Shown in pieces: positions 24,397 through 60,067 of a stretch of 64,000 nucleotides of DNA; the stretch's first letter is position 1, and each line of letters starts with the position of its first letter. Origin of the DNA: Nemertoderma westbladi (taxonomy: Eukaryota; Animalia; Xenacoelomorpha); contig JAUCBJ010008086.1 in assembly GCA_032718475.1 (NCBI GenBank), positions 43,123-107,122 of the forward strand, written 5' to 3'. Under the pieces are notes generated by a model. The model was given only the letters and a program-made list of their open reading frames with translations. It had not been told where the DNA came from and ran no database searches. The position numbers and the translations under genes are program-made.

Positions 24397-24407
24397 ATAA
24401 CAGTTAT
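24397..24407 (+). promoter_or_regulatory. Non-tRNA primer-binding position of copy 1, complementary to LTR segment 23612-23622
   Basis: ATAACAGTTAT is the reverse complement of ATAACTGTTAT (23612-23622); no TGG follows the LTR. Confidence 0.65.
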
Positions 24408-26706: not shown

Positions 26707-29700
26707 ATGTCTGACACTCAGCAAAACCTGTCAGACAGTCTAATCGATACAACCATCTGTGACACAGATAGGAGTGTGGAGCGATTAAGAAAGGAGTTCA
26801 GCTCACCTCCCACTGAAAGAAAGGTCATCCCTCCAGTAGTAGTATCAGACCCTAAGCTAATCCAACACCGTAGGTCTATCATCGGCACTCGGGCCCAAGT
26901 CAAACGGAACCAGGAAGCAGCTGTCCCACAGCAGCAACAGCCTAATCAAGAAACTTGTTCCCAGCGATCCGATAGCTCCAGTAGTTCGGATACTGTCGAG
27001 CTGACCCCCGAACGCGGATTGCAGATGGCGGCTACAGCCTACTCGGATCCCCTTCTCACCCTTCCTGCCGCAGTGCTAACTACTATATTGATTGCGGTGG
27101 AGGAACATCAAGCCGATTGGGCGAGAAGTAAGCGAGCGACCCAAGATAATTATGCGGGATACGCCAGGGAAGAATTGATGTCTATTGTCGAGTCACAATG
27201 GAACTTTCCCGGACCCGGACTCCCGTTAGATTTGTCCGAGGCTACTTGGGAAGATATACACAGGATGGGAGTGACTAAAGATACAATGGACCCAGCTGTT
27301 TGGAAGAGGTCGGCAGCAGGATATGTGCAGGGATTCTTCGGCTCCTTGGAGCGATTGGAAGAACAACTGTTTCGACAACCCCAAGGACCTCAAGAGCAGG
27401 AAGAGCTGCTATATCAAGTACGCGAAAGAACCCTACGCATTAGACTAATCCTATCAGCCTTTGAGGAAACTTCCAAAAGAAGACAGGACACGTCGCTGCA
27501 GGTTGCTGTCAAAACTTGGTTCCAGCGGGTAGGTCTCAAAGTACAAGAAACGGACCAGTGGAAATCCCAGCTGTCTGAGAGACTAACCTATGAAGAACCA
27601 ACCGATGCCACCCTTTCTCAAGTGGAAGGCGAAGAGACCGCAGAGAGACCACGAACGAGAGACGCCATCGACATATATCTGTCCGACTATCAGCGATTCC
27701 TAGGAGACGAAGAGTTGAGGAGACGGCTGTCTGGACTTTCCCCTAATAGTGAAGGAACCCAGCGTGTGTTAGACTCAATCGATGCTGAAATGTTAGCTGC
27801 TAACCAAGCTGAGTTTGATGAAAAACTCCGCCTCACTAGAGTCCAAGAAGAACTAGTAAAGAAAAGACGGATAGAGGACCGAAAGGCAGCTGAAGTAACA
27901 GCGGCAATGGCAGAAGTAGAAGCAGAAAGAAAGGCAGCGGCGGCAGAAGCAGAAGCAGAAAGAAAAGTAACAGCGGCAATGGCAGAAGTAGAAGCAGAAA
28001 GAAAAGTAACAGCGGCAATGGCAGAAGTAGAAGCAGAAAGAAAGGCAGCGGCGGCAGAAGCAGAAGCAGAAAGAAAAGCAGCAAAGGCAGTGGCAGAAGC
28101 AGAACGGAGAGCCTCTGAGGAGACTACCCAACTGGAGTTGGAAAATCTGCAAGAGACGCAAGACAACATAAATAAACAGTTAACTGCTAGTCAAATGCAG
28201 ATGAACAGAAGATCTACTCCCAAACGCCAGGGATATACGTCATCGGAGGAAAGCGAAACCACCGATCCTGAAGGCGGAGGAAACAGATCTCGTCTAAGCA
28301 GGCGTAGAAAAACATCTTACCGTCACAAATTGCCTGATTTGCCCCCAGCTGCTAGAAGACAACTAGCTAGCACCGACTTAAGTAGTATAGAACCTACAGA
28401 CCAAATTATTAAGGTCAAAAAACTCCCTACTATAGTTGATGAGCCTGAAATAATTAGGCCTGTCGTTCCCAAAGTCACTCCTGTGCTAGAGACCCCTGTA
28501 CTTCCAGAGCTTAACTCTAAATTTCCTTTACACAGTACTACACTGCCTGTACCCGGTAGAACAGTCCATGAGAATATCCCTGTCCTGGAAGCTGAGAGAG
28601 AAATCAAAGATTTGTCTCCCGTCGTCCCGCATCAGCCCGCTACAATGTTGGCGACTCCCGCTTCGGCGGTCGAGTGGGTAGAGGAGGGACGGCGGGGGAT
28701 GAATCTCCTGCTCGGACAGATGCAGGAGACTGTCCACCAACTTAAGGGAACAGTAAGGGAAGGTAGGGCCGAATTGCAAGAAGTGCAGCAAAGTATCGCG
28801 CTAGAACGCGACAAATTAGTCAACATACAAAAAGGTATACCAATACCCCCTGTAAAATTGTGTCAACCTGTTAGGTCTGAAGTATTACATGCGCAAGGTG
28901 TGGAGCCTACACGCATCTATACTGCTAGTGAAGTAGAAACTCCTATAGCAAACCCTGTTAAGGGTGATTATAGACCTGTTGTTAATGATATTCCCTATAG
29001 ACCTGACAATGATCTGAGAAATTTATATACCGATAATTCGATATTAAATAACACGATGGCCCAAGAAAGCTTTACGCGTCAGATGGCTAGAACAGAAGCC
29101 CGCCAAGCGGTCAAAGTGGGAGAGATCGTCAAATTCAATGGAGATGAGATGAAATGGTTACCTTTCAACGAATATTACAAAGACAGCATACAGAACTCTG
29201 TGCTATCTACCGGAGAGAAACTTAGGTTCCTCATCAAGTGCTTGGAAGGACCTCCCAAGTTAATGGCGCTAAAGTTTATTGGACATCCAGAAGGATTAAG
29301 ACAAGTTTGGGATACATTAAACATCAGGTATGGTAACAAGGATAACATAGCTAAGTATTTGTATGCAAAATTAGTAGCCCCCCGAAACTTCCTTAGTAGT
29401 GGTATTATAGAGTTTTCCGATGAGATTCAGGAGATCTGTAGACAATTGGACTGGTTAGGTAAGTCTCATGAATATCAGAGTTCCATGGTTATTGGAGCAG
29501 TAGTCTCTACTTTACCAAAGGGTGGGGTATGTACGCGTTGGGACAAGAAAGTGTTGTACATGAATGAACAACAACGACGAAGCCCTACCATGGCTGATCT
29601 CATGTCCTTCTTAGATGGTGAAGTAAAACTACAACTCATCAAGCAGTCCAGAGAGAAAATATCGGAAAATAAGGTAAGTGAGAAACCCGCTTCTAAGAGA

Positions 29701-32700
29701 AGAGTAACACCGGTGTGTTACACTGACGACGGCGAAAGCCAAGCTTCTCAAGAAGAGGACAGCGGGAAAGACACTGATAGATCTTACTACGTTGAAAAAA
29801 CCTCAAAAGACGTAAGTAAATACAAGGCTCGAAACAACGATAGGAGAGAACAGGTTGCCAAGACCCCTCCTCAGTCTCCTAACAGAATGCACCGAAGAAA
29901 GCCCGAAGAAAGAACGAGAGTGCATCAGGTTACCCAAGGTAAAGTGAGTAACATAAAACCCAACTGTGCGCTGTGCGAAGGTACCCACCGTTTGAGTGCG
30001 TGTGCTGAATTTCTAAAGAAATCCCTTGTAGACAGACGTGCAGTCGTGTGGGATAAGCGGTTATGCTATAATTGCCTCAGACCAGGACACCAACGGCGAA
30101 CCTGTTACTCCGACATAAAGTGTGCAAAGTGTAGCGCGAAACATCACATTTTGTTACACAGTGAGTTCGACCGAGACAACCCGGGTCAGGTAAGTGAGCC
30201 CGAACTACATGTCCAATTCAGTGATGTAAACGACACTGATCAAGAATCTGAGATGGAAGGATTCTATACTGACGAATTCTCCGACGCCAACGAATCCTGT
30301 TATCTAATCAATACCGCAGTGTATCGAGCACTTACTTATGAAAAGGACACCAACAATGAGTTCCCCCCAACTACCTTTGACAGACAACCATCTTGGAAAG
30401 CTCCAGCTTCCAATGTAGGAATCAGAGAATTTCCTGTAGTGCAGGTAAGAGTTCACGGTCTTAACAACAGTTACATAGTGAACGCCCTCCTTGACTCCGG
30501 CAGTACAGGAACATTCATCGATCAAGAACTAGCCGAAGATATCTTTGCTGGACAACCCAAATTCCGGACTAAATTGAATATGTCAGGAATTATGCAGGTT
30601 TGGAAATCTACCCTAACGGCAGATTACTATGTAGGTGTATTGTCCACCCCCCAGGATAAGTTAGGAGCACAAGGTATAAGGTCGGTAAAAATGGTGGCTA
30701 TAAAGAACTTCGCTACTACTCAAGCAGACCTTTATAATTGGGACGAGGATGAAAGCATCCAACATCTTAAGATACCTCGATTCCAGACAGATTATCCTGG
30801 AGTGCAAATACTCAACGGCCAAAACGCGCATGAGGCGCTCGAGACATTGGAGAAACGGCCTGCTCAACCGCAGCCACTGCAAACCTATGCGGTAAGAACT
30901 AGAGTAGGTTGGTACTTTACTGGCCCTTCCCGCAGGACTCTCGAAGAGAGAATGCCACAAGAACGAACATCCCAAGTAAATGAATGGGAAGTGGAGAGCA
31001 GTGAGGTGGACGAACTAACTGAGGAAACACCATACTCTTCAGATAATGACGACATCTACCAACTCTTCGATGAAGAGAACACAATCGACCTACTTACAGA
31101 AAACCAAACTTGGAAAAATCAGGTGAACCTATGTCAACTGATTCGCCCATCGGAACCCATCGCTTACAATGACGAACTAAACGATGAGATAGAGCGCGAC
31201 AACGCTAGAACTCGGGACGAACTAGCCGTACGATTCTTTACTCAAGAACTGGTAGAGCCCAATTCATATGATAAGGCCCTATCGATAGAAGAAGAAAGAG
31301 CCAAGCAAATCCAGGAAACAACTACACGTTTTTTAAAGGACCAAGGTAGATATGAAATCGGCCTGCTATTTCGAAAACGAGAACCTAGATTTATAAATAA
31401 CAGACCCTTGGCAGAGAAAAGAATCGCTCAATTACATCGACGCCTTACGGCTAATGCTCCAGCTAAAGAAATGTACCAAACTCAGCTGAAGAAATTTATA
31501 ACAAAGGGATACGCGGAGCGAGGACCGGAAGGAACACCAGTGACTGAGAGAACGTATTACTTAACACATCATTACGTTCCCAAACCCGGTAAACCCCACG
31601 AAGTACGAGTCGTATTCGATGGCTCCGCGCTATATATGGGCCAATCCCTCAATTCCAAGTTGTTACCAGGACCCAACTTACTCCAATCTTTGTTGGGAAT
31701 ACTTTTAAGATTAAGACAATATTCCATCGCGTTCGCCTCCGATATAGAAGGAATGTTCTTACAAGTCAAGGCGCTAGATAGAGATAGAGACAGCCTGAGA
31801 TTTCTGTGGTGGCCTGAAGGAGACCTCAATCAGAAACCGGTAGAGTACTGGATGACCATCCAGGCTTTTGGAATCATATCAAGCCCTTCCAACGCCTGCT
31901 CCGTGGTGCGAACCACTGCGAATGACAACCGAGACTCCTTCTCAAAAGAGGTGATAGACAACATCAAACGGAATATATACATGGACGACAATTTAAGGTC
32001 CCTTCCATCAGTAGAAGAAGCCATAGATGTCGCGAAAGGAACGGTAGAGTGTTTGAAAAGAGGTGGATTTCGACTGACGAAATTCACCAGCAACTCCCGT
32101 GAGTTTCTGGAAGCGATACCGGTAGAAGACCGAGGAGCGAAAGACCTAGACTTAATAAAGGACGATCTTCCTGAAACCAAGACGCTTGGCTTGAAGTGGG
32201 ACACTGAAAGAGACATCCTGTTTTTTCAGTTAAAACAGCGAGATAATCCAGTTCGGACCAAACGGATTTGTTTAAGTATCCTGAGCACTTATTTCGACCC
32301 ATTGGGATTTATAAGCCCAGTTATATTGATTGCTCGGAGTTTAGTACAACAAATGTGGCTTGAAAACCACTCATGGGACGATCCGCTTAAGGGAGAATTG
32401 TTAAAGAAATGGATGAAATGGGAAGATTCTCTACCTGCCATCGAGAACTTTATAATTTCCCGTGCATATTTTGGCCATGTTCTTCCTACGTATTCCTATC
32501 AACTCCATGTGTTTGGAGACGCCAGCGACATGGGAATAGGTATAGTAGCATATCTGCGAGTCGAAACCCCGGATGGAATCAAAGTCGCCTTGGTTACCTC
32601 TAAGGCATTGATTAACAACAAGTTAAAGGTTCCTCGAGCGGAGTTAAAGGCGGCTTTATACGCTACAGCCATCGGCCGGAACGTAACGGAACAAATCGAC

Positions 32701-33510
32701 TATCCACTGGAGAAAACGGTTTATTGGACCGACGCTTTACTCGTGTTGGAGTATCTAACCAATGAAGTCTGTCAGTTCAGCGTTTTTGTTACTAACAGGG
32801 TAGCTATTATTCTTAGTCGCACAAAGATAGATCAATGGAGACATTGCCCTGGTACGATTACTCCAGCCGATATCGCCTCACGGGGAGCAACTCCACAGGA
32901 ACTGATAGATACTCCAGACTGGTTGGGTGGACCCGACTTCCTGAGCAAGGAAGAGGATGAATGGCCTCCTCACCTTACTACGGCGGAGATTAGACAAGCC
33001 AAGGGAGCGGAGACAGTCAAACCTAAAACCCGGGCGAGTAAATCGAAGTTATCTAAACCGACTATCGATCTATCTGTATTACATACTTCCGGGAATGATG
33101 CTTCGGATCCACAATCCCTCAACACAAATAAGTCTGTTGTGGAAATTAGAGATAGAGATTGGAAATCTGGAATACCAGACGTCTCGCAAGGAATCTCACC
33201 CATGCTGCAGAGAGCAATGCATCACTACAGTTCCTGGAATCAGCTCTGTAAAGCCGTCACATATTTAAGACGATGTTTTCATCATCACTACTCCAGGACG
33301 AAGACCATTAGTGATACCGCTCCATTGACATCTGCACAAGTTCATGTTATTAAAAATTTACCCAAATATAAGACATCGGATCGTTTTCTAAAGGAGAAAA
33401 TTAGTCACCAGGAGCATGAAGAAACCAATAAGCAGATACTGAGACTCCTGCAATGCTATGAGGATTCCGAAAAGTATTTCCTGTTGTTGAGAAATCCGCA
33501 GATGGCTTAA
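26707..33510 (+). CDS. gag-pol: BEL/Pao gag-pol polyprotein (gag, zinc knuckles, aspartic protease, RT, RNase H)
   Basis: KFNGD...W..F gag core; CALC..HRLSAC / CYNCL..GH....C / CAKC..KHHILLH BEL knuckles; LLDSGST protease; RVVFDGS, SLN..L.PGPNL, DIEGMFLQV, YMDD; LHVFGDAS, PRAELKAA, YWTD, FV.NRV, WRHCPG..PADIASRG. Confidence 0.95.
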   Translation: MSDTQQNLSDSLIDTTICDTDRSVERLRKEFSSPPTERKVIPPVVVSDPKLIQHRRSIIGTRAQVKRNQEAAVPQQQQPNQETCSQRSDSSSSSDTVELTPERGLQMAATAYSDPLLTLPAAVLTTILIAVEEHQADWARSKRATQDNYAGYAREELMSIVESQWNFPGPGLPLDLSEATWEDIHRMGVTKDTMDPAVWKRSAAGYVQGFFGSLERLEEQLFRQPQGPQEQEELLYQVRERTLRIRLILSAFEETSKRRQDTSLQVAVKTWFQRVGLKVQETDQWKSQLSERLTYEEPTDATLSQVEGEETAERPRTRDAIDIYLSDYQRFLGDEELRRRLSGLSPNSEGTQRVLDSIDAEMLAANQAEFDEKLRLTRVQEELVKKRRIEDRKAAEVTAAMAEVEAERKAAAAEAEAERKVTAAMAEVEAERKVTAAMAEVEAERKAAAAEAEAERKAAKAVAEAERRASEETTQLELENLQETQDNINKQLTASQMQMNRRSTPKRQGYTSSEESETTDPEGGGNRSRLSRRRKTSYRHKLPDLPPAARRQLASTDLSSIEPTDQIIKVKKLPTIVDEPEIIRPVVPKVTPVLETPVLPELNSKFPLHSTTLPVPGRTVHENIPVLEAEREIKDLSPVVPHQPATMLATPASAVEWVEEGRRGMNLLLGQMQETVHQLKGTVREGRAELQEVQQSIALERDKLVNIQKGIPIPPVKLCQPVRSEVLHAQGVEPTRIYTASEVETPIANPVKGDYRPVVNDIPYRPDNDLRNLYTDNSILNNTMAQESFTRQMARTEARQAVKVGEIVKFNGDEMKWLPFNEYYKDSIQNSVLSTGEKLRFLIKCLEGPPKLMALKFIGHPEGLRQVWDTLNIRYGNKDNIAKYLYAKLVAPRNFLSSGIIEFSDEIQEICRQLDWLGKSHEYQSSMVIGAVVSTLPKGGVCTRWDKKVLYMNEQQRRSPTMADLMSFLDGEVKLQLIKQSREKISENKVSEKPASKRRVTPVCYTDDGESQASQEEDSGKDTDRSYYVEKTSKDVSKYKARNNDRREQVAKTPPQSPNRMHRRKPEERTRVHQVTQGKVSNIKPNCALCEGTHRLSACAEFLKKSLVDRRAVVWDKRLCYNCLRPGHQRRTCYSDIKCAKCSAKHHILLHSEFDRDNPGQVSEPELHVQFSDVNDTDQESEMEGFYTDEFSDANESCYLINTAVYRALTYEKDTNNEFPPTTFDRQPSWKAPASNVGIREFPVVQVRVHGLNNSYIVNALLDSGSTGTFIDQELAEDIFAGQPKFRTKLNMSGIMQVWKSTLTADYYVGVLSTPQDKLGAQGIRSVKMVAIKNFATTQADLYNWDEDESIQHLKIPRFQTDYPGVQILNGQNAHEALETLEKRPAQPQPLQTYAVRTRVGWYFTGPSRRTLEERMPQERTSQVNEWEVESSEVDELTEETPYSSDNDDIYQLFDEENTIDLLTENQTWKNQVNLCQLIRPSEPIAYNDELNDEIERDNARTRDELAVRFFTQELVEPNSYDKALSIEEERAKQIQETTTRFLKDQGRYEIGLLFRKREPRFINNRPLAEKRIAQLHRRLTANAPAKEMYQTQLKKFITKGYAERGPEGTPVTERTYYLTHHYVPKPGKPHEVRVVFDGSALYMGQSLNSKLLPGPNLLQSLLGILLRLRQYSIAFASDIEGMFLQVKALDRDRDSLRFLWWPEGDLNQKPVEYWMTIQAFGIISSPSNACSVVRTTANDNRDSFSKEVIDNIKRNIYMDDNLRSLPSVEEAIDVAKGTVECLKRGGFRLTKFTSNSREFLEAIPVEDRGAKDLDLIKDDLPETKTLGLKWDTERDILFFQLKQRDNPVRTKRICLSILSTYFDPLGFISPVILIARSLVQQMWLENHSWDDPLKGELLKKWMKWEDSLPAIENFIISRAYFGHVLPTYSYQLHVFGDASDMGIGIVAYLRVETPDGIKVALVTSKALINNKLKVPRAELKAALYATAIGRNVTEQIDYPLEKTVYWTDALLVLEYLTNEVCQFSVFVTNRVAIILSRTKIDQWRHCPGTITPADIASRGATPQELIDTPDWLGGPDFLSKEEDEWPPHLTTAEIRQAKGAETVKPKTRASKSKLSKPTIDLSVLHTSGNDASDPQSLNTNKSVVEIRDRDWKSGIPDVSQGISPMLQRAMHHYSSWNQLCKAVTYLRRCFHHHYSRTKTISDTAPLTSAQVHVIKNLPKYKTSDRFLKEKISHQEHEETNKQILRLLQCYEDSEKYFLLLRNPQMA
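27883..28110 (+). repeat. Coding Ala/Glu-rich helical repeat in gag (AEAERKVTAAMAEVE / AEAERKAAAA)
   Basis: GCAGAAG/GCGGCA-rich tandem units; a different expansion (AEAKAAA) occurs in copy 2 at ~45710-45910. Confidence 0.85.
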
Positions 33511-33530
33511 GGGATCGATTCTCGAGCACA

Positions 33531-34862
33531 ATGATAGATGGGCTAATACGTGTTGGAGGAAGACTCACCAATGCGCCCTTATCCTTTGACACTAAATTCC
33601 CCATACTCATTAGAAATCTTGAAGTACAAATCAAGATGATTGTAGATGTTCACAGCAAACTTTATCATGCTGGTAGAGAACGAGTTCTTAGCGAAATTCG
33701 AACTCGCTATTATTTTGATAAACCCCGTAGAGCTCTGAACCAAGTTCTTAGGAACTGCATACCCTGTAGGAAAGCATTCAGTAGGCCTTTAACACAGCGA
33801 GAGGCAGAATTACCTAGGGAACGAGTAAGCTTCTATGAACCACCTTTTACTAACACTGGTGTAGATTTATTTGGCCCTATTGAAGTATATCGTGCTAGGA
33901 CTATAGTCAAGAGATGGTGTGTCATCTTCGTATGCATGACTTGTAGAGCCATCCATCTCGATATGGTGAACGATCTATCTACCAACAGCTTTGTCTTAAG
34001 TTTACGCCGACAGATCGCTCGCTTCGGGACGAGTAATACCATGAGATCGGATAAGGGAACGAACTTCATTGGTGCCAACAACGAAATACAGGCTTACGTG
34101 AAGGACTGGAACCAAAGACAGGTGGACGATCAGCTAAGGATAACAGCGTCTAGCTGGACCTTCAACGCCGCCGACGCCCCTTGGTGGGGAGGAAGTTGGG
34201 AGAGATTAATTAGAAGTGTCAAGACCGCATTTCACTTTATAGTGCCATGCCGCGCGTATCTCACCGACGAACTTTTGCGGACGTTAATGGAGGAAATAGC
34301 TGCCTATCTCAACGAGAGACCGCTTATGCCAGTCTCATCGAGTCCCGATTCCCTGGAAGCGCTAACACCCGCGCACTTCCTACTGAAGAAACCTGTAGCC
34401 ATGCTCCCACGATCGGAGATTGCCGACGGAGACGAATACTGCCGTCGAACTTGGCAACTTATGCAGTTGCTATCCCGTCGTTTCGCTGACCATTTCGAGA
34501 AACATTATCTGCCCACGCTACAACTTCGAACTAAGTGGTTTGCGCAGCAAGAAAACGTCAGCGCCGGAGATATGGTGCTTATTGTAGATCCAGACCTCCC
34601 ACGTAAACGGTGGCAGACAGGTCGTATCATCGAGACCCACATCTCGGATGATGGTTTAGTACGCTCGGTAGAACTCATCGTCATGCGGCGTAACTTCAAG
34701 AAGCCAGGCATAATCTTTGAGACGCAACAACTCAATCGCCCAGTTGGTCGTTTATGTTTACTGGAAAGAGACAGAGAACTCTCCGGGAACTATGGAAGGC
34801 AAGACACTCTTCCCACGACCACCTCCCTAATTCCTCAAACATCTAGGGACTCCCTAACGTGA
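33531..34862 (+). CDS. BEL/Pao integrase, continuing gag-pol across a frameshift near 33450-33510
   Basis: DGLIRVGGRL, H...H...CxxC, PPF..TGVD.FGP, F.C...RAIHL, SDKGTNF.GA, PWWGG.WERLIRSVK, LN.RPL, LTPAHFL, DGLVRSV. Confidence 0.93.
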   Translation: MIDGLIRVGGRLTNAPLSFDTKFPILIRNLEVQIKMIVDVHSKLYHAGRERVLSEIRTRYYFDKPRRALNQVLRNCIPCRKAFSRPLTQREAELPRERVSFYEPPFTNTGVDLFGPIEVYRARTIVKRWCVIFVCMTCRAIHLDMVNDLSTNSFVLSLRRQIARFGTSNTMRSDKGTNFIGANNEIQAYVKDWNQRQVDDQLRITASSWTFNAADAPWWGGSWERLIRSVKTAFHFIVPCRAYLTDELLRTLMEEIAAYLNERPLMPVSSSPDSLEALTPAHFLLKKPVAMLPRSEIADGDEYCRRTWQLMQLLSRRFADHFEKHYLPTLQLRTKWFAQQENVSAGDMVLIVDPDLPRKRWQTGRIIETHISDDGLVRSVELIVMRRNFKKPGIIFETQQLNRPVGRLCLLERDRELSGNYGRQDTLPTTTSLIPQTSRDSLT

Positions 34863-35404
34863 TACGTCTGGAGTGGGTGTATGACTATATTATTTTACCT
34901 ATTTTATTATATTTTTATATGCGAACGTTATTATGTACTTTATTATAATCGTTTTTATTCAATTTTATTTAGTAGAATGTTATTTTAGTGATAATTTAGT
35001 AGATTAGTGCAATGTATTAGTGTTTATTACGTACGTAATTACTTATAATATATATTTAGTGCGACGGCGAGAAAATAATTATTTTTCTCTTTCCTTACTG
35101 TCCGTATCATATTGTAAATACGTGACTACAGTAAGATGAAATGTCCGTACTTATTAAAGTACAATAAAGCCACTACTATATTCAAGTATTATTGGTAGGC
35201 AGAGTATTAGGAATGCAAAGTTCAGATCCTCGTGTCTCAGCTAAACCAAGCTCTGGGTAGACCTTGGAAACGACTTGCCTCTTCACACTGACATTGCTTT
35301 GTGCGATATTGCTCTTCTACCTTATATTAAATAATACATATAGTAGCGTGATGTCCCTCTAACAGTAGCGTAAAACGCAAATAAATCTGTTAAACCTTTT
35401 GACC

Positions 35405-35700
35405 ATCTGTAATTCTAGTCGATTAAGATATCGCGGCACCCACGATATACTTGAAAGACAAATTCTAGAATCAGTGGTTAACGTCCCCAGACAAGTTCTA
35501 GAATAAATCGGTGCCCATCTTAAATATTAATTTAATATTTAGTAAAAATCTGTAAAATTCAGGTCCTTTGAAATTTCTAGTCAATTAAGATATCGCAGCA
35601 CTTACCGATACTCTTGAAAGACAATTTTATAGAATTAAGGATCCCATGTCCCCAGACCTGCTCTGGAATCAAATTGTGTCAATTTTAATATTAAATAATA
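35405..35700 (+). repeat. Diverged ~165-bp tandem duplication in the pol-ORF3 spacer
   Basis: TTCTAGTC.ATTAAGATATCGC.GCAC...TTGAAAGACAA...GTCCCCAGAC at ~35413 and ~35575; both units also present in copy 2 (~50095, ~50273). Confidence 0.75.
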
Positions 35701-36305
35701 AAATTCACGGGAATAAATTCAAATTCATATTTTAAATGAATTTCATAAATTGTCATTTTGTACAATTTATAACATTCCCAAAATTCCATTAATTATTAGA
35801 TCATGGGAGCGGAGATTCATCCTATTGAGTGTATTAGAGTGCGAGAATCTCCAACATATAGTCAATAGCCGATAAAATTAATAAAATCATGCATAAAGAG
35901 GATTTTGACAATTAAAGAATTATTATTAAATAGCATCCCAGATCTGTATGCATGAGAATTACCCTAATTCTGCTGCTAGCATTCCATAATGTCACCATAG
36001 CAACACCCACGCTAGAATTAGAAGCAAGTTAAGAGAACAATAGAAAGCTTGTCACATTGCATAGCATAGAGAATACATAGCACACTGTTAGTATCCAAGG
36101 ATACACAGTAATAACGTGACATTCTGGAAGGCACTGACTAATGGACAAATGGCCTGTATGTGTATAATTGGTGACAGTTGTGTGGAATTTGTGCGTTTAT
36201 AGGTGAATGTAACTGCTAAAGTATGTTTACAGTAGCTAGTCGCAATTGTAAAAGTAGCCCAACTCTCCTATAGAAAGAACCTAAGTGGATCCAAGCCTTT
36301 GGGAC

Positions 36306-36408
36306 GGACAGTGGAGTGACTTGTGCCGGTTATCGTTGTCGTGCTGTTGCTACATGTTGGCGTAAACACCGCGACGACGGTACATCGGCGCTGAGAATCC
36401 CACTGTCC
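36306..36408 (+). promoter_or_regulatory. Conserved long RNA hairpin ~80 nt upstream of ORF3
   Basis: GGACAGTGG/CCACTGTCC, GTGCCG/CGGCGC and ATCGTTGTCG/CGACGACGGT stems; pairing retained with different bases in copy 2 (51013-51118). Confidence 0.6.
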
Positions 36409-36490
36409 AGGGGCAAAGAGAAGTAGGCAGCGACGCCCGCTCGCCTAAAATATAAACTTATTTTGATATTAATAAACTCAGATAGCAGAT

Positions 36491-39400
36491 ATGACGGAGT
36501 TGATAGAAGATGATCTTGGTATTAGGGAGCGATATACTCTACCTTTACAAGCATTTGTGGATAGCTTAATACGCGGTGAAGCCGATCCAACCATTACGGA
36601 GGACGATGGTCGTTATATCGAACCGCCGATGTCCCAAGAGCAACTTGCGCGTGAATTGGACTATCGAAAATTCACCACTCGCTATACGAATCGTAATGGT
36701 ACGTATATGGACTTCTTAACTACCGGCCATCCTATCGATTTACATGATATGGACGATGTAGATACAGAGAGGGAAATGGTTCTATTTAAATATCATACCC
36801 AGCGGAGTCGTAACGATAAACCGAGAATAGATCACGAAAATTCTATTCGTAATAGACTGGAAAGAGAAAACGTTGAAGAACCGGATAAACGCATCGATTT
36901 CAACGAATACCTAGAATTTTTGAGAGAAACCTATCTCAACATCGCTAGTCAGCAGAACTTAGAGACTCGATATCCTCAAGGTATACATCACGACCCTGTG
37001 GTAGAACTCAAACGGCTCTATTTCACTATGATGTATCTTACCGCCGATCGTCCACTACCTGTTATCCCGGATAGTTTTGAACAAATGGAAGAATACTGCA
37101 AAACTGGAGAACGATCACCCGCGTTTCCTCTACAGGACGTACGTCTTTGGTATTATTGTGACGAATGCCCTAGACCCAACCAACAAACTGAAAGACATAA
37201 ACATCCGCGAAGACGTTGCGCTAAACACAGCTTTACGCGTTACACTTACGGGAGTTTCGAGCGAAACCTGTTCGACGTACCACCTACGATTGCTCGTCTT
37301 AAACGATCACTGAATAAACCCATGATCAGAGTTCCGGAATACTCGGTCAGGCCTCCCCATTCCCTAGTGAGACCTCAAACTCTTGATCCTAACAGTATCA
37401 CTGATCCTCCCGAACTATATTCCCTGTTCAAAGACTTAGTGTTACCCGAACAAATAATCGGTGGTGCTCCGGTAGTGGGTTCGTTAGACATTCGCCCATC
37501 CTACTTAGCCGGATTGGGACGCGGGCAGCTAATATCGCCCTTTGATCCTTACAATCGTCCAGGATTAAACCCGATGCAACCCGCCACGGAAGTCGAGGAG
37601 AGCGTTATAAGAAACGCTTTAGACGCCATTCGACAGAAAATCGGAAAGGGAACACAAGATTGTTTAGAGAAACGTAAATTACAACAACAAGTCCAATCGG
37701 TGAAGGAGTTAGCCTTGCCACAGTTCGATAGAGAAATCCAAAACCTCGAGGAAGATATCAAGCTTGGACGCACGTATTCTCTACAAGAATTTTTAGATGA
37801 ACGCTTACAGAGACAAGCGGAAGAAAATCTAATCGAGGAGAAACACACGAAACTGGAAGAGAGAGAAGAAGCCGCTTTAGCCCAACCTGAAGCTCAAATC
37901 CTCATGACGGACCTCTACTCTAAAACCGTTCGTCATCCCTCGATGATTCCACATTTCGGAGACAAGCTCTTCGCTACGATACAGCCTCAACCGGTTGATA
38001 TCAGTACAGGATCGCAAAATCTTATCGCTGATGCCCCTATGTTACAGCGTCCGCCGATCGAGGCCGCTCGTGTTGACGGTATACTCGTTGAACCTCCGGA
38101 CAATCGAGCGGATCTTGTCCGTCGTATGGTACACGATGTCAACATACGCGCTAGACCTTTACAGAACTCGTTTTATGGGATTAAAGAGCACCCTTATTAC
38201 GTTAATCTGACTCAATATTATATGGTAAAACCAGAAGACCCGACGCATAACTTAAAGTTTCTACCACTAATCAATCCTCTAGACATTGTCGAACTCGAAC
38301 AATTGCAGAAACATCTGGATCAGTTAGTAAAGGTAAACTCATTTAGAAAACCATATAACATTTCTCGAATCGAGAAAGATATAGAACCTCCTTATAATCT
38401 CGATGGATTTATTAAAACTCGATTAGTCCATTGGAATCTAGATGTATTATTTGAAGAAGAGAAAATACAAAGATATGGAAATGTGGAGACGTATACCACT
38501 CGGCACATGAAGTATAGTGATCTCCCTGACGCTAACCAATGCGCCACCTTGTGGCATCCAGTAGGGATGACTCTAGATAACGCCACCAAGGAGTGGAATG
38601 AAACTCTTAATGTTATTGAGATGTATGGAGTTGTCACCTACGACAATGAAGGTAGCGTTCCGGTCGGAGAACTAGGAACTACGCGCATGATCCACATACG
38701 CGGATTAGCTGGTTCTACCCACGTGTTTACTCGAGCGTGTTCCGACGTGATTGATTATTCCTTTGAAACTCTCACCGAAACACAAAAGAATCTCCGACAT
38801 GGACAATTCGAACTCGCGCAGCGTTACGTTATTGACACCGAACGCAAACCGGCCATGGGCATCGATGGATCGATGTTACCCCAACCCGTACTCGAGATGT
38901 TGTTCAACGAAAGAATCCTTAAAATCGGCTCAGCTGTTTATGGAGATCTCCAAAACGACTTTCGGAATATGGAGAACATTCCATACCCTTTCGTTGATAC
39001 TCAGCTGATTGCTCCCTGGGCAGAAGGTCGAGGTTTCTTCCGCACCATGTATGCTAATACGTCTAGCAACATTACAAAGGTGCAACGAACTTCCATCGGA
39101 CATCTTGCCTTTCAGGAATACGGATGGAATTTCAAAGTCGGAAATCCCATTAACTATCAACAAGTATACGGAGATCATTATTCCCGATTATACTTTGATG
39201 GACCATTAACCGCACCTGGCGCCGTGTATAGCTTCATGAGTGTTCCACTCCATCCTTCCTTAGCTATCTACACGATTTTTGAAAACACCGCACTTGCCGG
39301 TTGGCTAGCCGATGTGTGCAGTCGTACTATACGCGCCCATCCGTTAATACTTGGGACCAAACTCGCTAAGCTAGATGAGCATAATAAATTCATCCGCTTC

Positions 39401-40738
39401 GAATGTTTCCGGCGATTTTTAACCCCGTTCCGCAACGTGGATAGCCAATTTAAAGACCGCGCTTTGACCAAGCTCAGCCTAAGAAACTCAGCTGCAGAGA
39501 AGTTGGATAGCGCTGGATTCGCCATTTTCCAAGAGATTTGTATATCGAACTTGCACTCCTCTGTTATACAAAGACCTCGAATCCCCACAGGTTATTCTGT
39601 CGTGGAAATTCAGACAATAGGTCCACCTGAAGAGACAGACACGCCCACCTCAGCTATGCACTTGGAAGACGAGCCAATATGTCTAGAATCTGAGGAGATT
39701 CAGCCTATCGCGCCCCGGAACAGCGACAACGACTACATCATAGAATGGTATCAAGGTCCACAGTGTCTCACTGCGTACGATTATCGACATGCCAACTATG
39801 TTTCTAGGCAACGTTGTCGGTTATGCGCATCGAGAGACCATGATACGCCCATGGACACAAACGTCCGCTGTTCCTATTTCCAAGAACAACCGACTATGGA
39901 AATTTATTGCGCCTATTGCAGACTCAATAACTTGCATATTTTTGCGGTTTGCCCTCAATTTATGACTCAATGTCACCATTGTCAACTAAAGGGACACGCC
40001 AGTTTCGATTGCCCTTTTAATCACGATTTGGAAAGCGTAGATGAAATGATCACACTACGTTACATCAGAGCTTGGGAAGCGAACGCTGATTTACATTGTG
40101 ATTCGCGCCATCGCTATTATCCCGGACGCGCTTACGAAGGAGTTTATGCGTTCCATCCTTATCTATTCGCTTCTGTCGAACAGAAATCACGCATATCGAG
40201 TTACGAACTACTGAAGCGCGTCGGAGAATGTATTTCAACCAAGTTCGTACGTAAATTTCTCAGGAGTGTTAATCCTAGCGACCTTCATTCCTATAACTTA
40301 ATCAATTACATCCGTCAGGATCCGGACTATGGAGACTTATTTGTTAACTCACACCCAGAGTTACAGGAAGTATATCGGCGGCCTTACGAATACCGAGCCC
40401 GCGAACGCGAGTTGGAAAGAACCATTAAACCCCGGAGGTTTCTAACTGCCTATGGTCCACCCACGGCCCTCGTTCAGACCACTCGTAAAGGACCCGTAAG
40501 AGCGGCTGTCTTAAAACGAGCTCTCAAAGCCGTTAGACCCCTCTCCCCCGACGTTGATGTCAATCAACCCGGTACTTCGACTGGCGGATACACCGACCAT
40601 AATCCTACACCCTCTGATGCAATCATATTGCACCTTTCACCCAGGAGTTATAGCCCTCCTTGTAAAGTGGCTCGCCCCAAAGAGAAAAGGACTCTGGCTA
40701 GCTTTAAAAAACTGCGTAAACGCCGTCCGCGCTGTTAG
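36491..40738 (+). CDS. Extra retrotransposon ORF3 (1415 aa): N-terminal CxxC..CxxH, coiled coil, DEDDy 3'-5' exonuclease-like domain, C-terminal Cys/His knuckles, basic tail
   Basis: VVTYDNEG (ExoI), LPQPVLEMLFNERILKIGSAVYGDL (ExoII), FVDTQ, SIGHLAFQEYG, PLTAPGAVYSFMS (ExoIII-like) resemble WRN/EXD/RNase D domains; CRLC...H, CAYC....H...C, CHHCQLKGHASFDC; KKLRKRRPR. A remnant lies inside the LTRs of copy 2. Confidence 0.8.
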   Translation: MTELIEDDLGIRERYTLPLQAFVDSLIRGEADPTITEDDGRYIEPPMSQEQLARELDYRKFTTRYTNRNGTYMDFLTTGHPIDLHDMDDVDTEREMVLFKYHTQRSRNDKPRIDHENSIRNRLERENVEEPDKRIDFNEYLEFLRETYLNIASQQNLETRYPQGIHHDPVVELKRLYFTMMYLTADRPLPVIPDSFEQMEEYCKTGERSPAFPLQDVRLWYYCDECPRPNQQTERHKHPRRRCAKHSFTRYTYGSFERNLFDVPPTIARLKRSLNKPMIRVPEYSVRPPHSLVRPQTLDPNSITDPPELYSLFKDLVLPEQIIGGAPVVGSLDIRPSYLAGLGRGQLISPFDPYNRPGLNPMQPATEVEESVIRNALDAIRQKIGKGTQDCLEKRKLQQQVQSVKELALPQFDREIQNLEEDIKLGRTYSLQEFLDERLQRQAEENLIEEKHTKLEEREEAALAQPEAQILMTDLYSKTVRHPSMIPHFGDKLFATIQPQPVDISTGSQNLIADAPMLQRPPIEAARVDGILVEPPDNRADLVRRMVHDVNIRARPLQNSFYGIKEHPYYVNLTQYYMVKPEDPTHNLKFLPLINPLDIVELEQLQKHLDQLVKVNSFRKPYNISRIEKDIEPPYNLDGFIKTRLVHWNLDVLFEEEKIQRYGNVETYTTRHMKYSDLPDANQCATLWHPVGMTLDNATKEWNETLNVIEMYGVVTYDNEGSVPVGELGTTRMIHIRGLAGSTHVFTRACSDVIDYSFETLTETQKNLRHGQFELAQRYVIDTERKPAMGIDGSMLPQPVLEMLFNERILKIGSAVYGDLQNDFRNMENIPYPFVDTQLIAPWAEGRGFFRTMYANTSSNITKVQRTSIGHLAFQEYGWNFKVGNPINYQQVYGDHYSRLYFDGPLTAPGAVYSFMSVPLHPSLAIYTIFENTALAGWLADVCSRTIRAHPLILGTKLAKLDEHNKFIRFECFRRFLTPFRNVDSQFKDRALTKLSLRNSAAEKLDSAGFAIFQEICISNLHSSVIQRPRIPTGYSVVEIQTIGPPEETDTPTSAMHLEDEPICLESEEIQPIAPRNSDNDYIIEWYQGPQCLTAYDYRHANYVSRQRCRLCASRDHDTPMDTNVRCSYFQEQPTMEIYCAYCRLNNLHIFAVCPQFMTQCHHCQLKGHASFDCPFNHDLESVDEMITLRYIRAWEANADLHCDSRHRYYPGRAYEGVYAFHPYLFASVEQKSRISSYELLKRVGECISTKFVRKFLRSVNPSDLHSYNLINYIRQDPDYGDLFVNSHPELQEVYRRPYEYRARERELERTIKPRRFLTAYGPPTALVQTTRKGPVRAAVLKRALKAVRPLSPDVDVNQPGTSTGGYTDHNPTPSDAIILHLSPRSYSPPCKVARPKEKRTLASFKKLRKRRPRC

Positions 40739-41298
40739 CTTATCCAATTCCGCTAACACAAACCCATAGAGTGAGCCATAAAGCGATATTGGGAGCACGA
40801 GGTTGATTACCAATCAACCTCGTGTCAGCCCAGTAAACGGGGACAATAGGCCCCAAAGGAGACACACACAATAAGGGTCAGGGGTTACTCCCCTGACAAG
40901 AGAGAGAATAGCTGGGGTGAACGGGAAACACACCAGGGAAGGTGAAGGGGCGAGAAGTGGGATATTAGCCAATGGGGGGACAGCATCGACTAGGTACACT
41001 AATATGGCCAACCGTGCAGTATATTACCTGTTGGTGCTCCCCTATTCAGTCAGTTATCTCAGTCGGTCAGTACAGTCAGGTAGTACGGTGACAGTTAGGA
41101 CCGTCACCGCCGTCATCACATTACCGGTACCAGTGCAGCAGTATTCAGTGCTATCTGCTATTGTACCTATACACTATATGTTATCTCAATTTATATCCTT
41201 AACAACAACGTCAGAACAACAACTCTTTTCATCCACACGGCGGGGACGCGTACTTAACCAATACCGGATAAACCGGGATCCTCTCGGATCCCGTCACA
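40733..41298 (+). repeat. 5' LTR (566 bp) of a third LTR element inserted in the last codons of ORF3
   Basis: TGTTAGC..ATCCAATTCCGC ... GATCCCGTCACA; both ends match the solo LTR at 62666-63286; insertion point is where copy 1 and copy 2 ORF3 diverge. Confidence 0.8.
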
Positions 41299-41343
41299 GT
41301 CCTAACTCTAGGCCTGCCGAACTGTAACAGACCAAAGATAAAG

Positions 41344-41974
41344 ATGAGTCGAGAGAAAGGAACGACACCGCCGCGGACCCCGGACGACGATCTAACGATC
41401 CGCGAGGCCACGGCGAGACGATACGAACCCACGACGCCGGTCGATGCTACGCCGACCACGTCGACGCAGGTTGACGCCACGTCGATAACGAGCAATACGG
41501 CGAACCAAGTTGTGGGGGGTCGTCTACCAGGAGAGAGCGAGTCGAGTAGAGGAGACGAGTCGGGAGAAGAAGAGAAAGACGAGTCGACGCGGAGCGAGGG
41601 TCGACATACCGATGTCACCGGCCAGCCACAGGCCGAGGACGACGAACGGTCCACCGGAACGGCGACGGTGGGGCCGTCGGTACGACGTCGGACCCGGAGA
41701 GACAGAGGAGAGGTCGGCGACGAGGACGTCGGGGTTTCTGATCAACTTCGACGGGCCTACAACGCGACCCGGGAACTACTAAAGGAGGCCAAGGAGGGGG
41801 CGAAGATAGACGAGGTGAGACTGAGAAAGCGACTAGGTGAGTCGAACAGATATTTTGATCACCTAGTGTGTTCTGGACAGAGAGAACTAGCAGAGTTGAG
41901 GGCGTGGGGAGTTGCCTTCGAACTGTTTAAACTATGGGAATGTGGGGGTATGGAACCTAGTGTAGTGTACATAG
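41344..41974 (+). CDS. N-terminal part of the first (gag-like) ORF of the third LTR element, truncated by BEL copy 2
   Basis: ATG 45 nt after the LTR; Thr/Glu/Arg-rich disordered sequence; the stop codon is supplied by the inserted LTR at 41975. Confidence 0.55.
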
Positions 41975-43174
41975 TGTAAAAGCTTTTGTGGGATAACTGA
42001 TTCGTTTGCCTTGTTGGCCAGTTCCCCCCCAGTCGCTAAGAATACTCTCAAAGTGATCTATAGCTAAAAATAGTGCAAGTTACCAGCTTATTGGCTGATT
42101 TGCTGTACGCAGGCATCTGGGCTCTGTTTAATCGGCCAACAAGCCTAGGGAGGTTGCGTCATAGCCTTGTTTTTGTATCTCCCAATAGAATTTGAGTTAG
42201 CCTTGATTTTGACCTATCACAGAGCTACTGAACTGAAATTTTCCTATCTCACTGCTCTTTCTCTGTGTTGAACGGGAGCTTCGTGGAATAAGGGAGTTGG
42301 TATCCTCGTACAGAGCAGTAGTCACGAGTTTTTCAAAGCCACGAAAGAACGGCTTTTTAGTGTTTTGTGCTTTCTGCTTTTTAGCTCAACACTAGTAGGT
42401 TTAATTATAAGGACATATATCCTTTAACTGCAATTTCGTAATCACTGCATACTGCGGTACTGCATACACTGCATACTGTGTAACACTGTGCATACTTTTA
42501 TATTGTTATACTGCTATTTACTGTCAGTTCTTCATAATATGGTTGATGAATTATTATATTTGGAATAACGAGAAATAACCCCGAAAACCCAATATTCTTG
42601 ATATACCGAAGGTAAGAGAGAAAGGTTACCAATAACGATTGTGACTTATGTTAAAGTGGTTTGAAGTGAATCTAATGTTATTTGGTAGACCCTACATGAG
42701 TCAGTCTGTGTTCCTTTTATATGTGATTAAAATCAGTGAAGATTGGCAGATTAGTGTGCAGTATTGTGCAGCATTGCGTATGAGCGAGTCTGTTAAAGAA
42801 GCAATTCCTAAAGAATGCGCCATATATGTGAATTATAATTAAGCCATATCGTTGTGAGTAGTTTAAGTCATAACTCTGTTTCTATAGATAAAGCGCCACG
42901 TCCTAAAGGAACTGTTAATATTCCCGAAGGTGAATAATATTGTCAGAGATTATATAATACTGTCAGTCGAATAATACATTAGGCTTACATAGCAACAAAA
43001 TTAAACCGTCGAACCCAATCTCCCGGGAATATCCAGCGGGTGAATGGTCGCGCACGGATTGGTTTCGACTAGTGTAGTGAATCAAATACTTGTCATAGGC
43101 TAAAAAGCGATTTAATATCTAGAAGACATCTTAATTTGGCGGGTTAAACTGCCAAAGGTCTGAAAGCGCGAACA
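41975..43174 (+). repeat. 5' LTR of BEL copy 2 (1200 bp)
   Basis: TGTAAAAGC...AAAGCGCGAACA; direct repeat of 52609-53292. Confidence 0.93.
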
Positions 43175-45399: not shown

Positions 45400-48300
45400 A
45401 TGTCTGACGCAAGACAGAACCTATCAGACAGTCTACTAGATACAACCGAGAGCGAAGTGACGGTAGAGAAGCCGCATAAGAGGGATGCCATTGACATCTA
45501 TCTGTCAGACTATCAACGTTTTTTAGGAGATGAAGAGTTGAGGAGAAGGCTAGAGGGACTTAGCCCTAATAGCGAAGGAGCCAAACTTGTGTTAGATGCG
45601 ATTGATGTGGATAGGTTAGCGGCGAACCAAGCTAAATTCGATGAACAACTCCGCATCGCTAGAGAAAAGGAAGAACAAGTAAGGAAAAAGCGTATAGAAG
45701 ACAGAAAGATAGCAGCAGTGGCAGAGGCAGAAAGAAAAGCGGCAGCGGCAGAGGCAAAAGCGGCAGCGGCAGAGGCAAAAGCGGCAGCGGCAGCGGCAAA
45801 AGCGGCAGCAGTGGCGGAAGCAGAACGAAAGGCGGCAGCGGCAGAGGCAAAAGCGGCAGCAGCAGAGGCAAAAGCGGCAGCAGTGGCGGAAGTAGAACGA
45901 AAAGCGGCTGAAGAGATCATCCAACTGGAGTTGGAAAATCTTCAAGAGAAGCAAGACGACTTCAGTAAACAGTTAGCAGCTAGTAATATGCAGATGATGA
46001 GTCGATCTACTCCCAAAAGACAAGGGTATACATCATCTGAGGAAGGCGATACCACCGACACTGAAGGCGGAAGAAATCGATCTCGACTAAGCAGACGTAA
46101 AAGAACATTCCACCGGCAGAAATTGCCTGATTTGCCTCCAGCTGTTAGAAGACAACTAAATAACACCAACTTAGGTAGTACAGAACCCACAGACCAAATA
46201 ATTGAAATAGAAAGACTCCCTACTATAGTAGATGAGCCTGAAATAATTAGGCCTGTTCTTGAAATCACCCCTACGGTGATAGACACACCTGTACTCCCTG
46301 AAGCTACCTATAAATTCCCTCTGCATAGCACTAAGCTACCTGTGCCCCGTAGAACTGCCCAAGAGACAGTTCAGGTCCTGGACCCCGAGCGAAGTATTCC
46401 GAATTTGTCGCCCGTTGTCCCTTGTCTGCCCGCTACGACGTTGGCGGATCCCGTTTCGGCGGTTGATTGGGTAGACGAGAGACGGCGGGGGATGGATATT
46501 CTCCTCGGAGAGATGAAGGAGAATCGGAGACTCTCCTCCCAACAGGTCCGAGAGTTGGAAGGGACTGTCCAACATTTAAAGGGAACAGTGAGGGAAAGTA
46601 AGTTAGAGTTGCAAGAAGTGCAGCAAAATATCGCGCTAGAGCGCGATAAATTAGTAAATTTACAAAAGGGTATACCACCACCCCCTGTAACAATGTGTCA
46701 ACCCGTTAGGTCTGAAGTATCTCATGCGCAAGGTGTGGAGCCTACACGCATTTATACTGCTAGCGAAGTAGAAACTCCTATAGTGAACCCTATTAAGGGT
46801 AATTATAGACCTGTTGGTAATGATATTCCCTATGGAACTGATCATAATCCGAGAAATTTATATACCGATAACTCGATATTAAATAGCACGATGGCCCAAG
46901 AAAGTTTTACGCGTCAAATGGCTAGAACCGAAGCCCGGCAAGCGGTAAAGGTGGGAGAGATCGTCAAGTTCAATGGAGATGAGATGAAATGGTTACCTTT
47001 TAATGAATATTACAAAGATAACATACAGAACTCCGTACTATCTAATGGAGAAAAACTTAGATACCTCATCGAGTGCTTGGAAGGATCTCCCAAGTTAATG
47101 GCGTTAAGGTTTATTGGACATCCAGACGGATTAAGACAAGTTTGGGATACACTAAACATCAGGTATGGTAATAGGAATAACATAGCTGGGTATTTGTATG
47201 CAAAGTTGGTAGCGCCCCGAAAGTTTATTAGCAGCGGGATTATAGAGTTTTCCGATGAAATTCAGGAGATCTGCAGACAATTAGATTGGCTAGGTAAGTC
47301 TCATGAGTATCAGAGTGCTATGGTTATTAGAGCAGTGGCTTCTGCTTTACCGAAGGGTGGAGTAGGTACACGCTGGGATAAGAAAGTGTTATATATGATG
47401 GAACAACAACGACGAGACCCTACCATGGCTGATCTCATGTCATTCTTAGATGGAGAAGTGAAATTACAGCTCCTAAGGCAGTCCAGAGAGAAGACATTGG
47501 AAAACAAGGTAAGTGAGAAACCCGTTTCTAGGAGAAGGGTAACACCAGTATGTTATACCGACGACGGTGAAAGCCAAACTTCTCAAGGAGAGGACAGCGG
47601 GAAAGACACTGACAGATCTTATTATGTCAATAAAATGCCTAAAGATCAGGTAAGTAAATCCGAGTCTCGACCCAATGACAGAAGGGAACCGGTACAAAAA
47701 ACCCTTCCTACGTCTCCTAAAAGAATTCAGGTGAGAAAGCCCGAGGAAAGAACAAGTGTGCACCACATAGCACAGGTTAAAGTAAGTAACATCAAGCCGA
47801 AATGTGTGCTGTGCGACGGGCCCCACCGTTTAAATGCGTGTGATAAATTCCTGAGGAAATCACTAAAGGATAGACGTGAAGTCATGTGGGATAAGCGGTT
47901 GTGTTATAATTGCCTCAGACGAGGACACCAACGGCGAACCTGTAACTCCGACGCAAGGTGTGCAAAGTGCGGCGCAAAACATCATATCTTGTTGCACACG
48001 GAATTCGAACGAAACAGCCCGAGTCAGGTAAGTGAGTCCGAACTACATGTCCAATTCAGTGATGTGAACGACACTGATCAATCTGAGATGGAAGGATTCT
48101 ATACGGACGAGTTCTCCGACCAAAACGAATCCTGTTACCTAATAAACACCACCGCAGTGTATCGAGCACTCGTGTATGAGAAAGACACAGACAGCGACCT
48201 TACCTTAACTACTTCCGATCAACAACCATCTTGGAAAGCGCCAACTTCCAATATAGGAATCCGAGAATTTCCTGTAGTCCAGTTACGGGTCCACGGACCT

Positions 48301-52530: not shown

Positions 52531-52608
52531 CTGTTTAGAGTATTTTTATATTTTAGAAACTGTGCTTTTGTATATTTTATAGACTTAAATCCCATTTTCT
52601 GGGAGCGG

Positions 52609-60031: not shown

Positions 60032-60067
60032 ACTATGATAACAAGCACGTATAAATCTTATTTTTAG

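Follow-up and report, generated by a model that had tools for sequence, protein, structure and literature searches.

What kind of gene can a BEL/Pao retroelement carry behind pol, in the place where an envelope gene may stand, and what would such a gene do for the element or to its host? This question is raised by a 64,000-nt stretch of DNA from Nemertoderma westbladi (contig JAUCBJ010008086.1, positions 43,123 to 107,122 of the forward strand; hereafter, the window, in whose numbering all positions are given). The window contains two copies of a BEL/Pao-type element with long terminal repeats (LTRs), and the first of them (copy 1) carries a long third open reading frame (ORF3). An initial annotation, made from the letters of the window, described ORF3 as element cargo with a DEDDy exonuclease-like domain. 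We found that ORF3 is a conserved third gene of a multi-copy BEL/Pao family and is under purifying selection, and that its central domain probably adopts a DEDDy fold, in which D718, E720, D819, and E931 would be the acidic residues and Y927 the tyrosine, as predicted from sequence comparisons.

ORF3 is a conserved third gene of the element

ORF3 reads through 1,415 codons without a stop, is intronless, and lies in the sense orientation 3' of a BEL/Pao-type pol; at the local composition, the chance of an open frame of this length is about 6e-34. Upstream of it we found DUF1759, an aspartic protease, Peptidase_A17 (E 8e-36), Integrase_H2C2, and DUF5641. As DUF1759, Peptidase_A17, Integrase_H2C2, and DUF5641 form the BEL/Pao signature, the element is of the BEL/Pao type; the domain order is protease (PR), reverse transcriptase (RT), RNase H (RH), and integrase (IN), with Pao-type gag/pol domains. 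Thus, the intact, intronless 4.2-kb sense frame behind pol that the initial annotation reported is borne out by both the reading frame and the domains upstream. The best 19-residue Kyte-Doolittle window of ORF3 scores 1.24 and the N-terminus is not hydrophobic. An env or env-like gene was rejected, as it had been in the initial annotation, since ORF3 has neither a signal peptide nor a transmembrane anchor.

The second copy (copy 2, 41975-53292), which is inserted within an unrelated LTR element, provides the boundaries. Its ORF3 remnant lies between pol and the polypurine tract (PPT)/3' LTR, with 78 nt separating its end from the 3' LTR. Because this remnant retains both ends of the gene, both ORF3 ends are within the element. 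The place of the remnant had been recognized correctly at the outset, but the nuclease region and the zinc knuckles are deleted from it, and the rest is decayed, with 7 stops in 242 codons. Identity of copy 1 with copy 2 stops at 40732, where the unrelated LTR element begins; this element cuts copy 1 at the final codon of ORF3.

Many related sequences were found in sequencing runs. In runs X1 and X3, 6,538 and 2,310 contigs, respectively, aligned on 1.7 kb of the nuclease-knuckle region with 80-100% identity (mostly 90-99%); these counts are evidence of many divergent copies and not a copy number, and X1 is possibly the window's own source. A single-copy host gene was rejected, as ORF3 is multi-copy, intronless, and inside the LTR boundaries. 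The ends kept in copy 2 and the many copies agree with the earlier view that ORF3 is cargo of the element and not a host gene.

The ratio of nonsynonymous to synonymous substitution rates (dN/dS) between copies 1 and 2 was 0.21 for ORF3 residues 1-91 and 0.26 for residues 208-457, close to 0.19 for gag-PR; for the last 47 codons of ORF3 it was 1.15. Of 481 variants between family members, the 40 with the best support, which are no random sample, included 31 synonymous ones; 12.6 would be expected from substitutions of the same types. In the nuclease region, synonymous changes made up 20 of the 22 best-supported variants (8.0 expected, p 2e-7), the codon of D718 included, whereas the nine N-terminal variants among those listed gave p 0.07, which is not significant. 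The N-terminal 690 residues have no assigned role, yet they are under selection.

Besides the nuclease-like domain, ORF3 contains a coiled-coil-like stretch, and the three Cys/His clusters and the basic tail resembling a nuclear localization signal (NLS), both noticed in the initial annotation, are present (residues 1109-1174, and 12 Lys/Arg in the last 25 residues). The matches of the clusters in the PDB are to retroviral nucleocapsid (NC) fingers (E 0.0014), so that the clusters are NC-like knuckles. A further Cys/His cluster, possibly a zinc finger, is found at residues 223-246 (37157-37228) and is matched in the copy 2 remnant.

Evidence for a probable RNase D/WRN-like domain

We regard the central domain as DEDDy/RNase D-like because several weak but independent signals agree. 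Among 18,950 NCBIfam models, the top match of ORF3 was RNase D (E 0.002 for the domain and 0.014 for the whole ORF), and this match falls on the ExoII block. Among 1.84 billion representative proteins, ORF3 had a sole homologue, a 648-residue protein (P0002; E 3e-7, 26-29% identity), which has the same layout of a nuclease-like region followed by three CCHC knuckles and is encoded on a contig of 9,449 nt. P0002 itself has a sub-threshold match to PF01612 (E 0.04, range 0.04-0.2). Its ten best named Atlas matches all belong to the PF01612 family or clan, with a top score of 0.86 that we take as a lead only, and its top Atlas cluster is a euglenozoan family of PF01612 with zf-CCHC, the latter in 61% of the members. 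The only plasmid match in tblastn was rnd, a weak one (E 7).

A profile of seven annotated bacterial 3'-5' exonucleases/RNase D, which were gathered without using the ExoI or ExoIII of ORF3 (one of them, an RNase D, had been fetched through its match to ORF3), ranked P0002 first (E 1e-4) and ORF3 second (E 0.015), both above 2,000 shuffled sequences and 129 decoy ORFs. Alignment of the ORF3 domain to this profile by hhalign gave 90% over 51 columns. In a second metagenome scan, the patterns of ORF3 and P0002 retrieved 4 of 264 candidates, which are intron-split WRN-like exonuclease genes; two of them scored PF01612 and one matched the WRN exonuclease 2fbt (E 7e-7). These four loci served as references only, since their ExoII match holds by construction.

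Other searches gave little. For residues 560-1230 of ORF3, no homologue was found among proteins of 778-2,477 residues. A search of proteins of 111-429 residues found none either, and a two-sequence profile of ORF3 and P0002 retrieved P0002 alone. DNA scans for ORF3 homologues yielded none in viral contigs, in genome contigs, or in the first metagenome scan; a scan of viral contigs with the RT of the element was also without result. PHROGs contained nothing useful, and tblastn of P0002 against phages gave two weak matches.

Proposed catalytic motifs

All the motifs quoted in the initial annotation are present: VTYDNEG (residues 715-721), GSAVYGDL (813-820), FVDTQ (834-838), SIGHLA (868-873), and PLTAPGAVY (from 905). 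The ExoII motif is the clearest; D819 ranked first of 1,398 positions and is the conserved Asp of a helix-strand block. In the case of ExoI, D62/E64 of P0002 ranked first of 639 positions. For ExoIII, the register formerly proposed (PLT...Y, with Y913) ends in Ser and ranked 13th, whereas another ranked 7th, and we rejected the former. The likelier ExoIII motif is PLHPSLAIYTIFEN (residues 919-932), with Y927-x3-E931, which aligns with P0002 and with the Tyr of the family and came first locally for two out of the three segments used as references. The five residues proposed to be catalytic (D718, E720, D819, Y927, and E931) are all common to ORF3 and P0002, and this shared D-E-D-Y-E set favours a predicted working site. 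In EXD2, the canonical residues are D108, E110, D171, Y242, and D246, according to the accessible part of PMC6648332. As the final ExoIII acid of ORF3 is Glu and not the Asp of the canonical Y-x3-D, we do not class ORF3 among the canonical DEDDy enzymes, although it is predicted to work like one. Provided that the fold is correct, the predicted domain is rather probably active.

Several results weigh against this assignment. ORF3 had no match in Pfam, where no gathering cut-off was reached, PDB sequence searches with the nuclease domain yielded chance matches only, and the AlphaFold models were of low confidence (pLDDT 31 and 29 from one and two sequences, respectively). For the DEDDy-like domain first proposed, the RNase D match in NCBIfam and the profile ranks speak for the claim, and Pfam and structure prediction, both suggested as checks at that time, do not. 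The profile matches are confined to the ExoII region. ExoI D718/E720 ranked third of 1,406 positions and requires an insertion of about 35 residues, and MAFFT repeatedly picked an Asp-less register, S757-x-E759, at the canonical spacing. One of the three reference segments did not choose Y927, which ranked only seventh of 1,399 positions, and the last acid of ExoIII is Glu, a feature that ORF3 has in common with P0002.

A self-complementary primer site

The primer-binding site (PBS), the first 11-12 nt beyond the 5' LTR, is in both copies an exact complement of a segment at the same position of the LTR, and four changes between the copies are compensatory. Self-priming is likely because the complements are exact in both copies, follow each other through the four compensatory changes, and are rare in shuffled sequences (Table 1); the sequence thus points to tRNA-independent self-priming of a BEL/Pao element. 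Both copies share with Tf1-type elements a PBS that can pair with some 11 nt of their own LTR. Copy 2 retains the site although its ORF3 has decayed; therefore, the element requires the site in cis, whereas any ORF3 function that it requires is supplied in trans. We found no tie between the primer site and ORF3.

Possible roles of ORF3

The reading that we favour, tentatively and as something a little short of probable, is that ORF3 is an RNase D/WRN-type 3'-5' exonuclease with three knuckles that trims small or tailed RNAs and thereby blunts RNA silencing by the host. A GC box and a TATA-like word, TATAAA (36451-36456), stand about 40 nt upstream of the ORF3 ATG and are kept in both copies, which suggests a candidate internal promoter in the spacer between pol and ORF3. 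ORF3 would be made from this promoter of its own, and because of that it would act in trans, outside the Gag-Pol polyprotein. The basic tail may bring the protein to the nucleus. By analogy with the RNase D of Trypanosoma brucei (TbRND), the knuckles would bind single-stranded RNA and guide its 3' end to the active site. The likeliest targets would be small RNAs of the host or the precursors of these, or surveillance tails on the RNA of the element itself. We favour a host-facing role over one in a particular priming mechanism because DEDDy cargo is found repeatedly in retroelements whose modes of replication are unrelated.

Two points argue against a role in silencing. Mature PIWI-interacting RNAs (piRNAs) are 2'-O-methylated and resistant to 3' trimming. 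Furthermore, rotifer elements that bear DEDDy genes are still covered by small RNAs and have no clear gain in copy number, as stated in the accessible part of PMC5408684. If ORF3 does act on small RNAs, it would be a suppressor of RNA silencing encoded by an animal transposon. Proteins of that kind have long been sought.

Less probably, ORF3 is a catalytically dead DEDD-fold RNA-binding module, comparable to EXD1, Maelstrom, and Egalitarian, and, together with the knuckles and the coiled-coil-like stretch, serves the genomic RNA of 18-19 kb as a chaperone or as an adaptor for export or transport. The non-canonical final Glu, the uncertain ExoI register, and the long insertions are consistent with this, as are the NC-like knuckles and the 690 selected N-terminal residues, and inactive DEDD derivatives do occur in piRNA pathways (PMC5408684, accessible part). 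However, P0002 keeps the complete D-E-D-Y-E set in spite of an identity of only 26-29%. Dead enzymes rarely keep a full set of catalytic residues. In addition, the acidic set of the rotifer cargo is altered as well (DEED), and this cargo was judged possibly active in the same part of PMC5408684.

It is improbable that ORF3 matures the primer, that is, that the exonuclease trims the 3' overhang of the RNA to the 11-12-bp LTR-PBS duplex and frees a 3' OH for RT. RNase D-type enzymes do process the 3' ends of structured RNAs (PMC5408684, accessible part). The element has no tRNA-type PBS, the orientation of its exact, compensated complement is correct for minus-strand priming, and a TATA-like word stands just upstream of the complement, which may therefore lie at the end of U3 and near the 3' end of the transcript. 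On the other side, self-priming of the Tf1 type requires only the RNase H of RT, which weakens a primer-trimming role for ORF3. Tf1-type priming uses the 5' end of the transcript and no extra gene (PMC4600332, accessible part), TbRND is not halted by RNA pairing (PMC7797062, accessible part), and ORF3 lies outside Gag-Pol and shows no sign of packaging. The wider proposal, that BEL/Pao elements of about 19 kb form a tRNA-independent lineage whose own primer-maturation enzyme, a D-E-D-E exonuclease with zinc knuckles, gives it a route distinct from both tRNA priming and the RNase H cut of Tf1, is a shade less probable again. If ORF3 did mature the self-primer, this would be a new way to start reverse transcription.

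It is quite improbable that ORF3 acts on DNA, as a 3'-5' exonuclease similar to WRN, in the proofreading or trimming of the cDNA ends or single-stranded intermediates of an unusually long element or in the removal of cytosolic cDNA. The nearest sequence leads include WRN/EXD-type exonucleases, which act on DNA (PMC5408684 and PMC6648332, accessible parts), the size of the element is roughly double that described for BEL/Pao, and the tail is NLS-like; against these, the CCHC knuckles indicate single-stranded RNA, RNase D is the best family match, and we found no evidence of packaging with RT. Finally, a captured host gene, a chance ORF without a role in the element, or the absence of a nuclease fold is very improbable: the fold is confirmed neither by Pfam nor by structure, and copy 2, to judge from its LTRs, transposed recently without the nuclease domain, but ORF3 is intronless and multi-copy and is subject to purifying selection throughout the family, RT is missing from copy 2 as well, which implies that this copy is moved in trans, and the remote homologue P0002 has the same architecture, so that the reading of no role in the element is largely refuted.

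Organization of the locus

The features of both copies are summarized in Table 1. Copy 1 spans at least 17.6 kb (23111 to 40732), with only its 5' LTR and no 3' LTR within the window, and its gag-pol frame is broken between RNase H and integrase (about 33460-33510). The set of TG...CA LTRs and the PPT before the 3' LTR is complete in copy 2, whose two LTRs have an identity of 100% across 368 nt and of 98.4% across 318 nt. As the RT of copy 2 is also deleted, this copy must be moved in trans. The joint of its pol deletion recurs in three of the four sequencing runs examined. Contigs in three runs each join across 36859-39664 and 31052-32828; therefore, internally deleted subfamilies circulate in the host.

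Table 1. Positions of the two element copies and their features in the window (PBS is the primer-binding site and PPT is the polypurine tract)
Feature	Position	Strand	Remarks
Copy 1, 5' LTR, TGT...ACA, 1,286 bp	23111..24396	+	aligns with copy 2 LTR
Copy 1, LTR segment, candidate self-primer	23612..23622	+	11 nt, exact complement of PBS; 15 of 5,000 shuffles
Copy 1, PBS position	24397..24407	+	no tRNA-type TGG start
Copy 1, gag-PR-RT-RH ORF of BEL/Pao element	26707..33510	+	DUF1759, Peptidase_A17; RVT_1 E 0.007
Copy 1, integrase ORF, other frame (pol break)	33462..34862	+	Integrase_H2C2, DUF5641
Non-coding spacer between pol and ORF3, common to both copies	34863..36490	+	contains conserved strip, GC box, TATA-like word
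ORF3, 1,415 aa	36491..40738	+	last codon and stop supplied by adjoining inserted element
Putative RNase D/WRN-like (DEDDy-like) domain, aa ~706-945	38606..39325	+	proposed D718, E720, D819, Y927, E931
Three CCHC-type zinc knuckles, third canonical	39815..40012	+	aa 1109-1174
Basic NLS-like tail	40661..40735	+	12 K/R in 25 aa
Unrelated LTR element (LTR and start of gag-like ORF)	40733..41974	+	interrupts copy 1 at ORF3 end
Copy 2, 5' LTR	41975..43174	+	aligned with copy 1 LTR
Copy 2, LTR segment	42416..42427		12 nt, complement of PBS 43175-43186; 2 of 5,000 shuffles
Copy 2, gag-PR ORF, most of RT, RNase H, integrase deleted (non-autonomous)	45400..49542	+	
Copy 2, ORF3 remnant	51202..52530	+	aa 1-457 and 1368-1409 only, stops and frameshifts
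Copy 2, U-tract/PPT (to 52608) and 3' LTR (52609-53292)	52595..53292	+	515-nt internal deletion in LTR

Within the spacer, a strip at 35150-35450 (about 49830-50130 in copy 2) is 95-99% identical between the copies, against about 80% in its surroundings. The strip forms a long hairpin, the folding of which is only moderate (z -2.0), and it is possibly a cis-acting RNA or DNA element; Rfam and ARAGORN scans of the element, the strip included, detected no structured RNA and no tRNA. The 2.3-kb leader before gag (24397-26706) has tandem repeats of 38 nt and 288 nt, which are kept in both copies.

The unrelated LTR element is 57% identical to a minus-strand relative at about 62770-63286. Its family opens with a short inverted repeat, and the start of its gag-like ORF (41272-41979), which is cut by copy 2, has no Pfam match. 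Further downstream, a 1,166-residue ORF of a non-LTR reverse transcriptase (53561-57061, minus strand) with a GC-rich tandem-repeat 5' part and no Pfam match is flanked by arrays of one short repeat at about 53290-53390 and 58010-58290; we take it to be similar to the site-specific CRE-type elements. Short exons at 59270-62230 resemble, by eye, the calcium-binding EGF repeats of a host gene.

Comparison with known systems

The element is similar to Belpaoviridae/BEL-Pao in its signature Pfam domains, PR-RT-RH-IN order, TG...CA LTRs, PPT, and a third gene behind pol. According to the International Committee on Taxonomy of Viruses, BEL/Pao elements are 4.2-10 kb long and have an 18-nt PBS for tRNA-Arg/Gly and at most an env-like third gene (PMC8742986). 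In contrast to the described BEL/Pao elements, the present one has a length of at least 17.6 kb even without a 3' LTR; its PBS is self-complementary, and its third gene resembles a nuclease gene. With that length and PBS it falls outside Semotivirus (18-nt tRNA-Arg/Gly PBS; 4.2-10 kb), and we file it as BEL/Pao-type only, by its Pfam signature. Thus, the element departs from the textbook description of BEL/Pao in size and primer site.

In the self-complementary PBS, the element resembles Tf1 and Tj1, in which about 11 nt of the element's own LTR, and not a tRNA, is complementary to the PBS. As far as the accessible part of PMC4600332 describes them, however, Tf1 and Tj1 are Ty3/gypsy chromoviruses, their primer is the 5' end of the mRNA freed by RNase H, and no accessory nuclease is involved.

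In domain order, ORF3 resembles TbRND, in which a DEDD domain of the RNase D type precedes CCHC fingers at the C-terminus. The accessible part of PMC7797062 reports that these fingers bind single-stranded RNA and that the RNase D domain removes the 3' tails of small RNAs. TbRND differs in being a host mitochondrial enzyme for the U-tails of guide RNAs, with four fingers and a much shorter chain. It was absent from the PDB profile search matches of ORF3, and we regard it as an architectural analogue of ORF3, not as a shown orthologue.

The initial annotation named DEDDy ORF3s of bdelloid rotifers as the precedent, and the literature confirms this. RNase D-like ORF3s with a DEED motif were described in the rotifer elements Juno, Vesta, and Athena (PMC5408684, accessible part), and the accessible parts of PMC6431247 and PMC6338049 repeat this finding. 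Retroelement nuclease cargo is in print only for these rotifer Gypsy-type and Penelope-like elements, with no function shown (PMC5408684). For BEL/Pao, the accessible part of PMC13524379 lists fusogens only, and the word 'nuclease' does not occur in the accessible part of a BEL/Pao survey (PMC3118150). The initial annotation knew of no nuclease third gene in BEL/Pao, and the literature that we searched on cargo and self-priming, with Repbase, subscription journals, and bioRxiv supplements outside its scope, contains no report of a BEL/Pao exonuclease ORF either.

As in the bdelloid Juno/Vesta and the Athena/Terminon Penelope-like elements, the RNase D-like gene of the present element would occupy the env slot behind pol, and as in the rotifer ORF3s, it has no transmembrane segments, a putatively altered acidic set, and no assigned role. 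The differences are as follows. The host element is BEL/Pao and not Ty3/gypsy-type or Penelope-like; the proposed acidic set is D-E-D-E instead of DEED, a comparison made by description only; and ORF3, of 1,415 residues, also possesses three CCHC knuckles, an extended N-terminal region, and a basic tail. Purifying selection on ORF3 is shown directly here, whereas the rotifer study did not obtain such evidence for its ORFs, and the open frame of ORF3 means that the domain can be expressed and assayed. With the predicted domain, BEL/Pao would become the third lineage of retroelements with nuclease cargo, and the architecture of this cargo, a nuclease and three CCHC knuckles, would be a different one.

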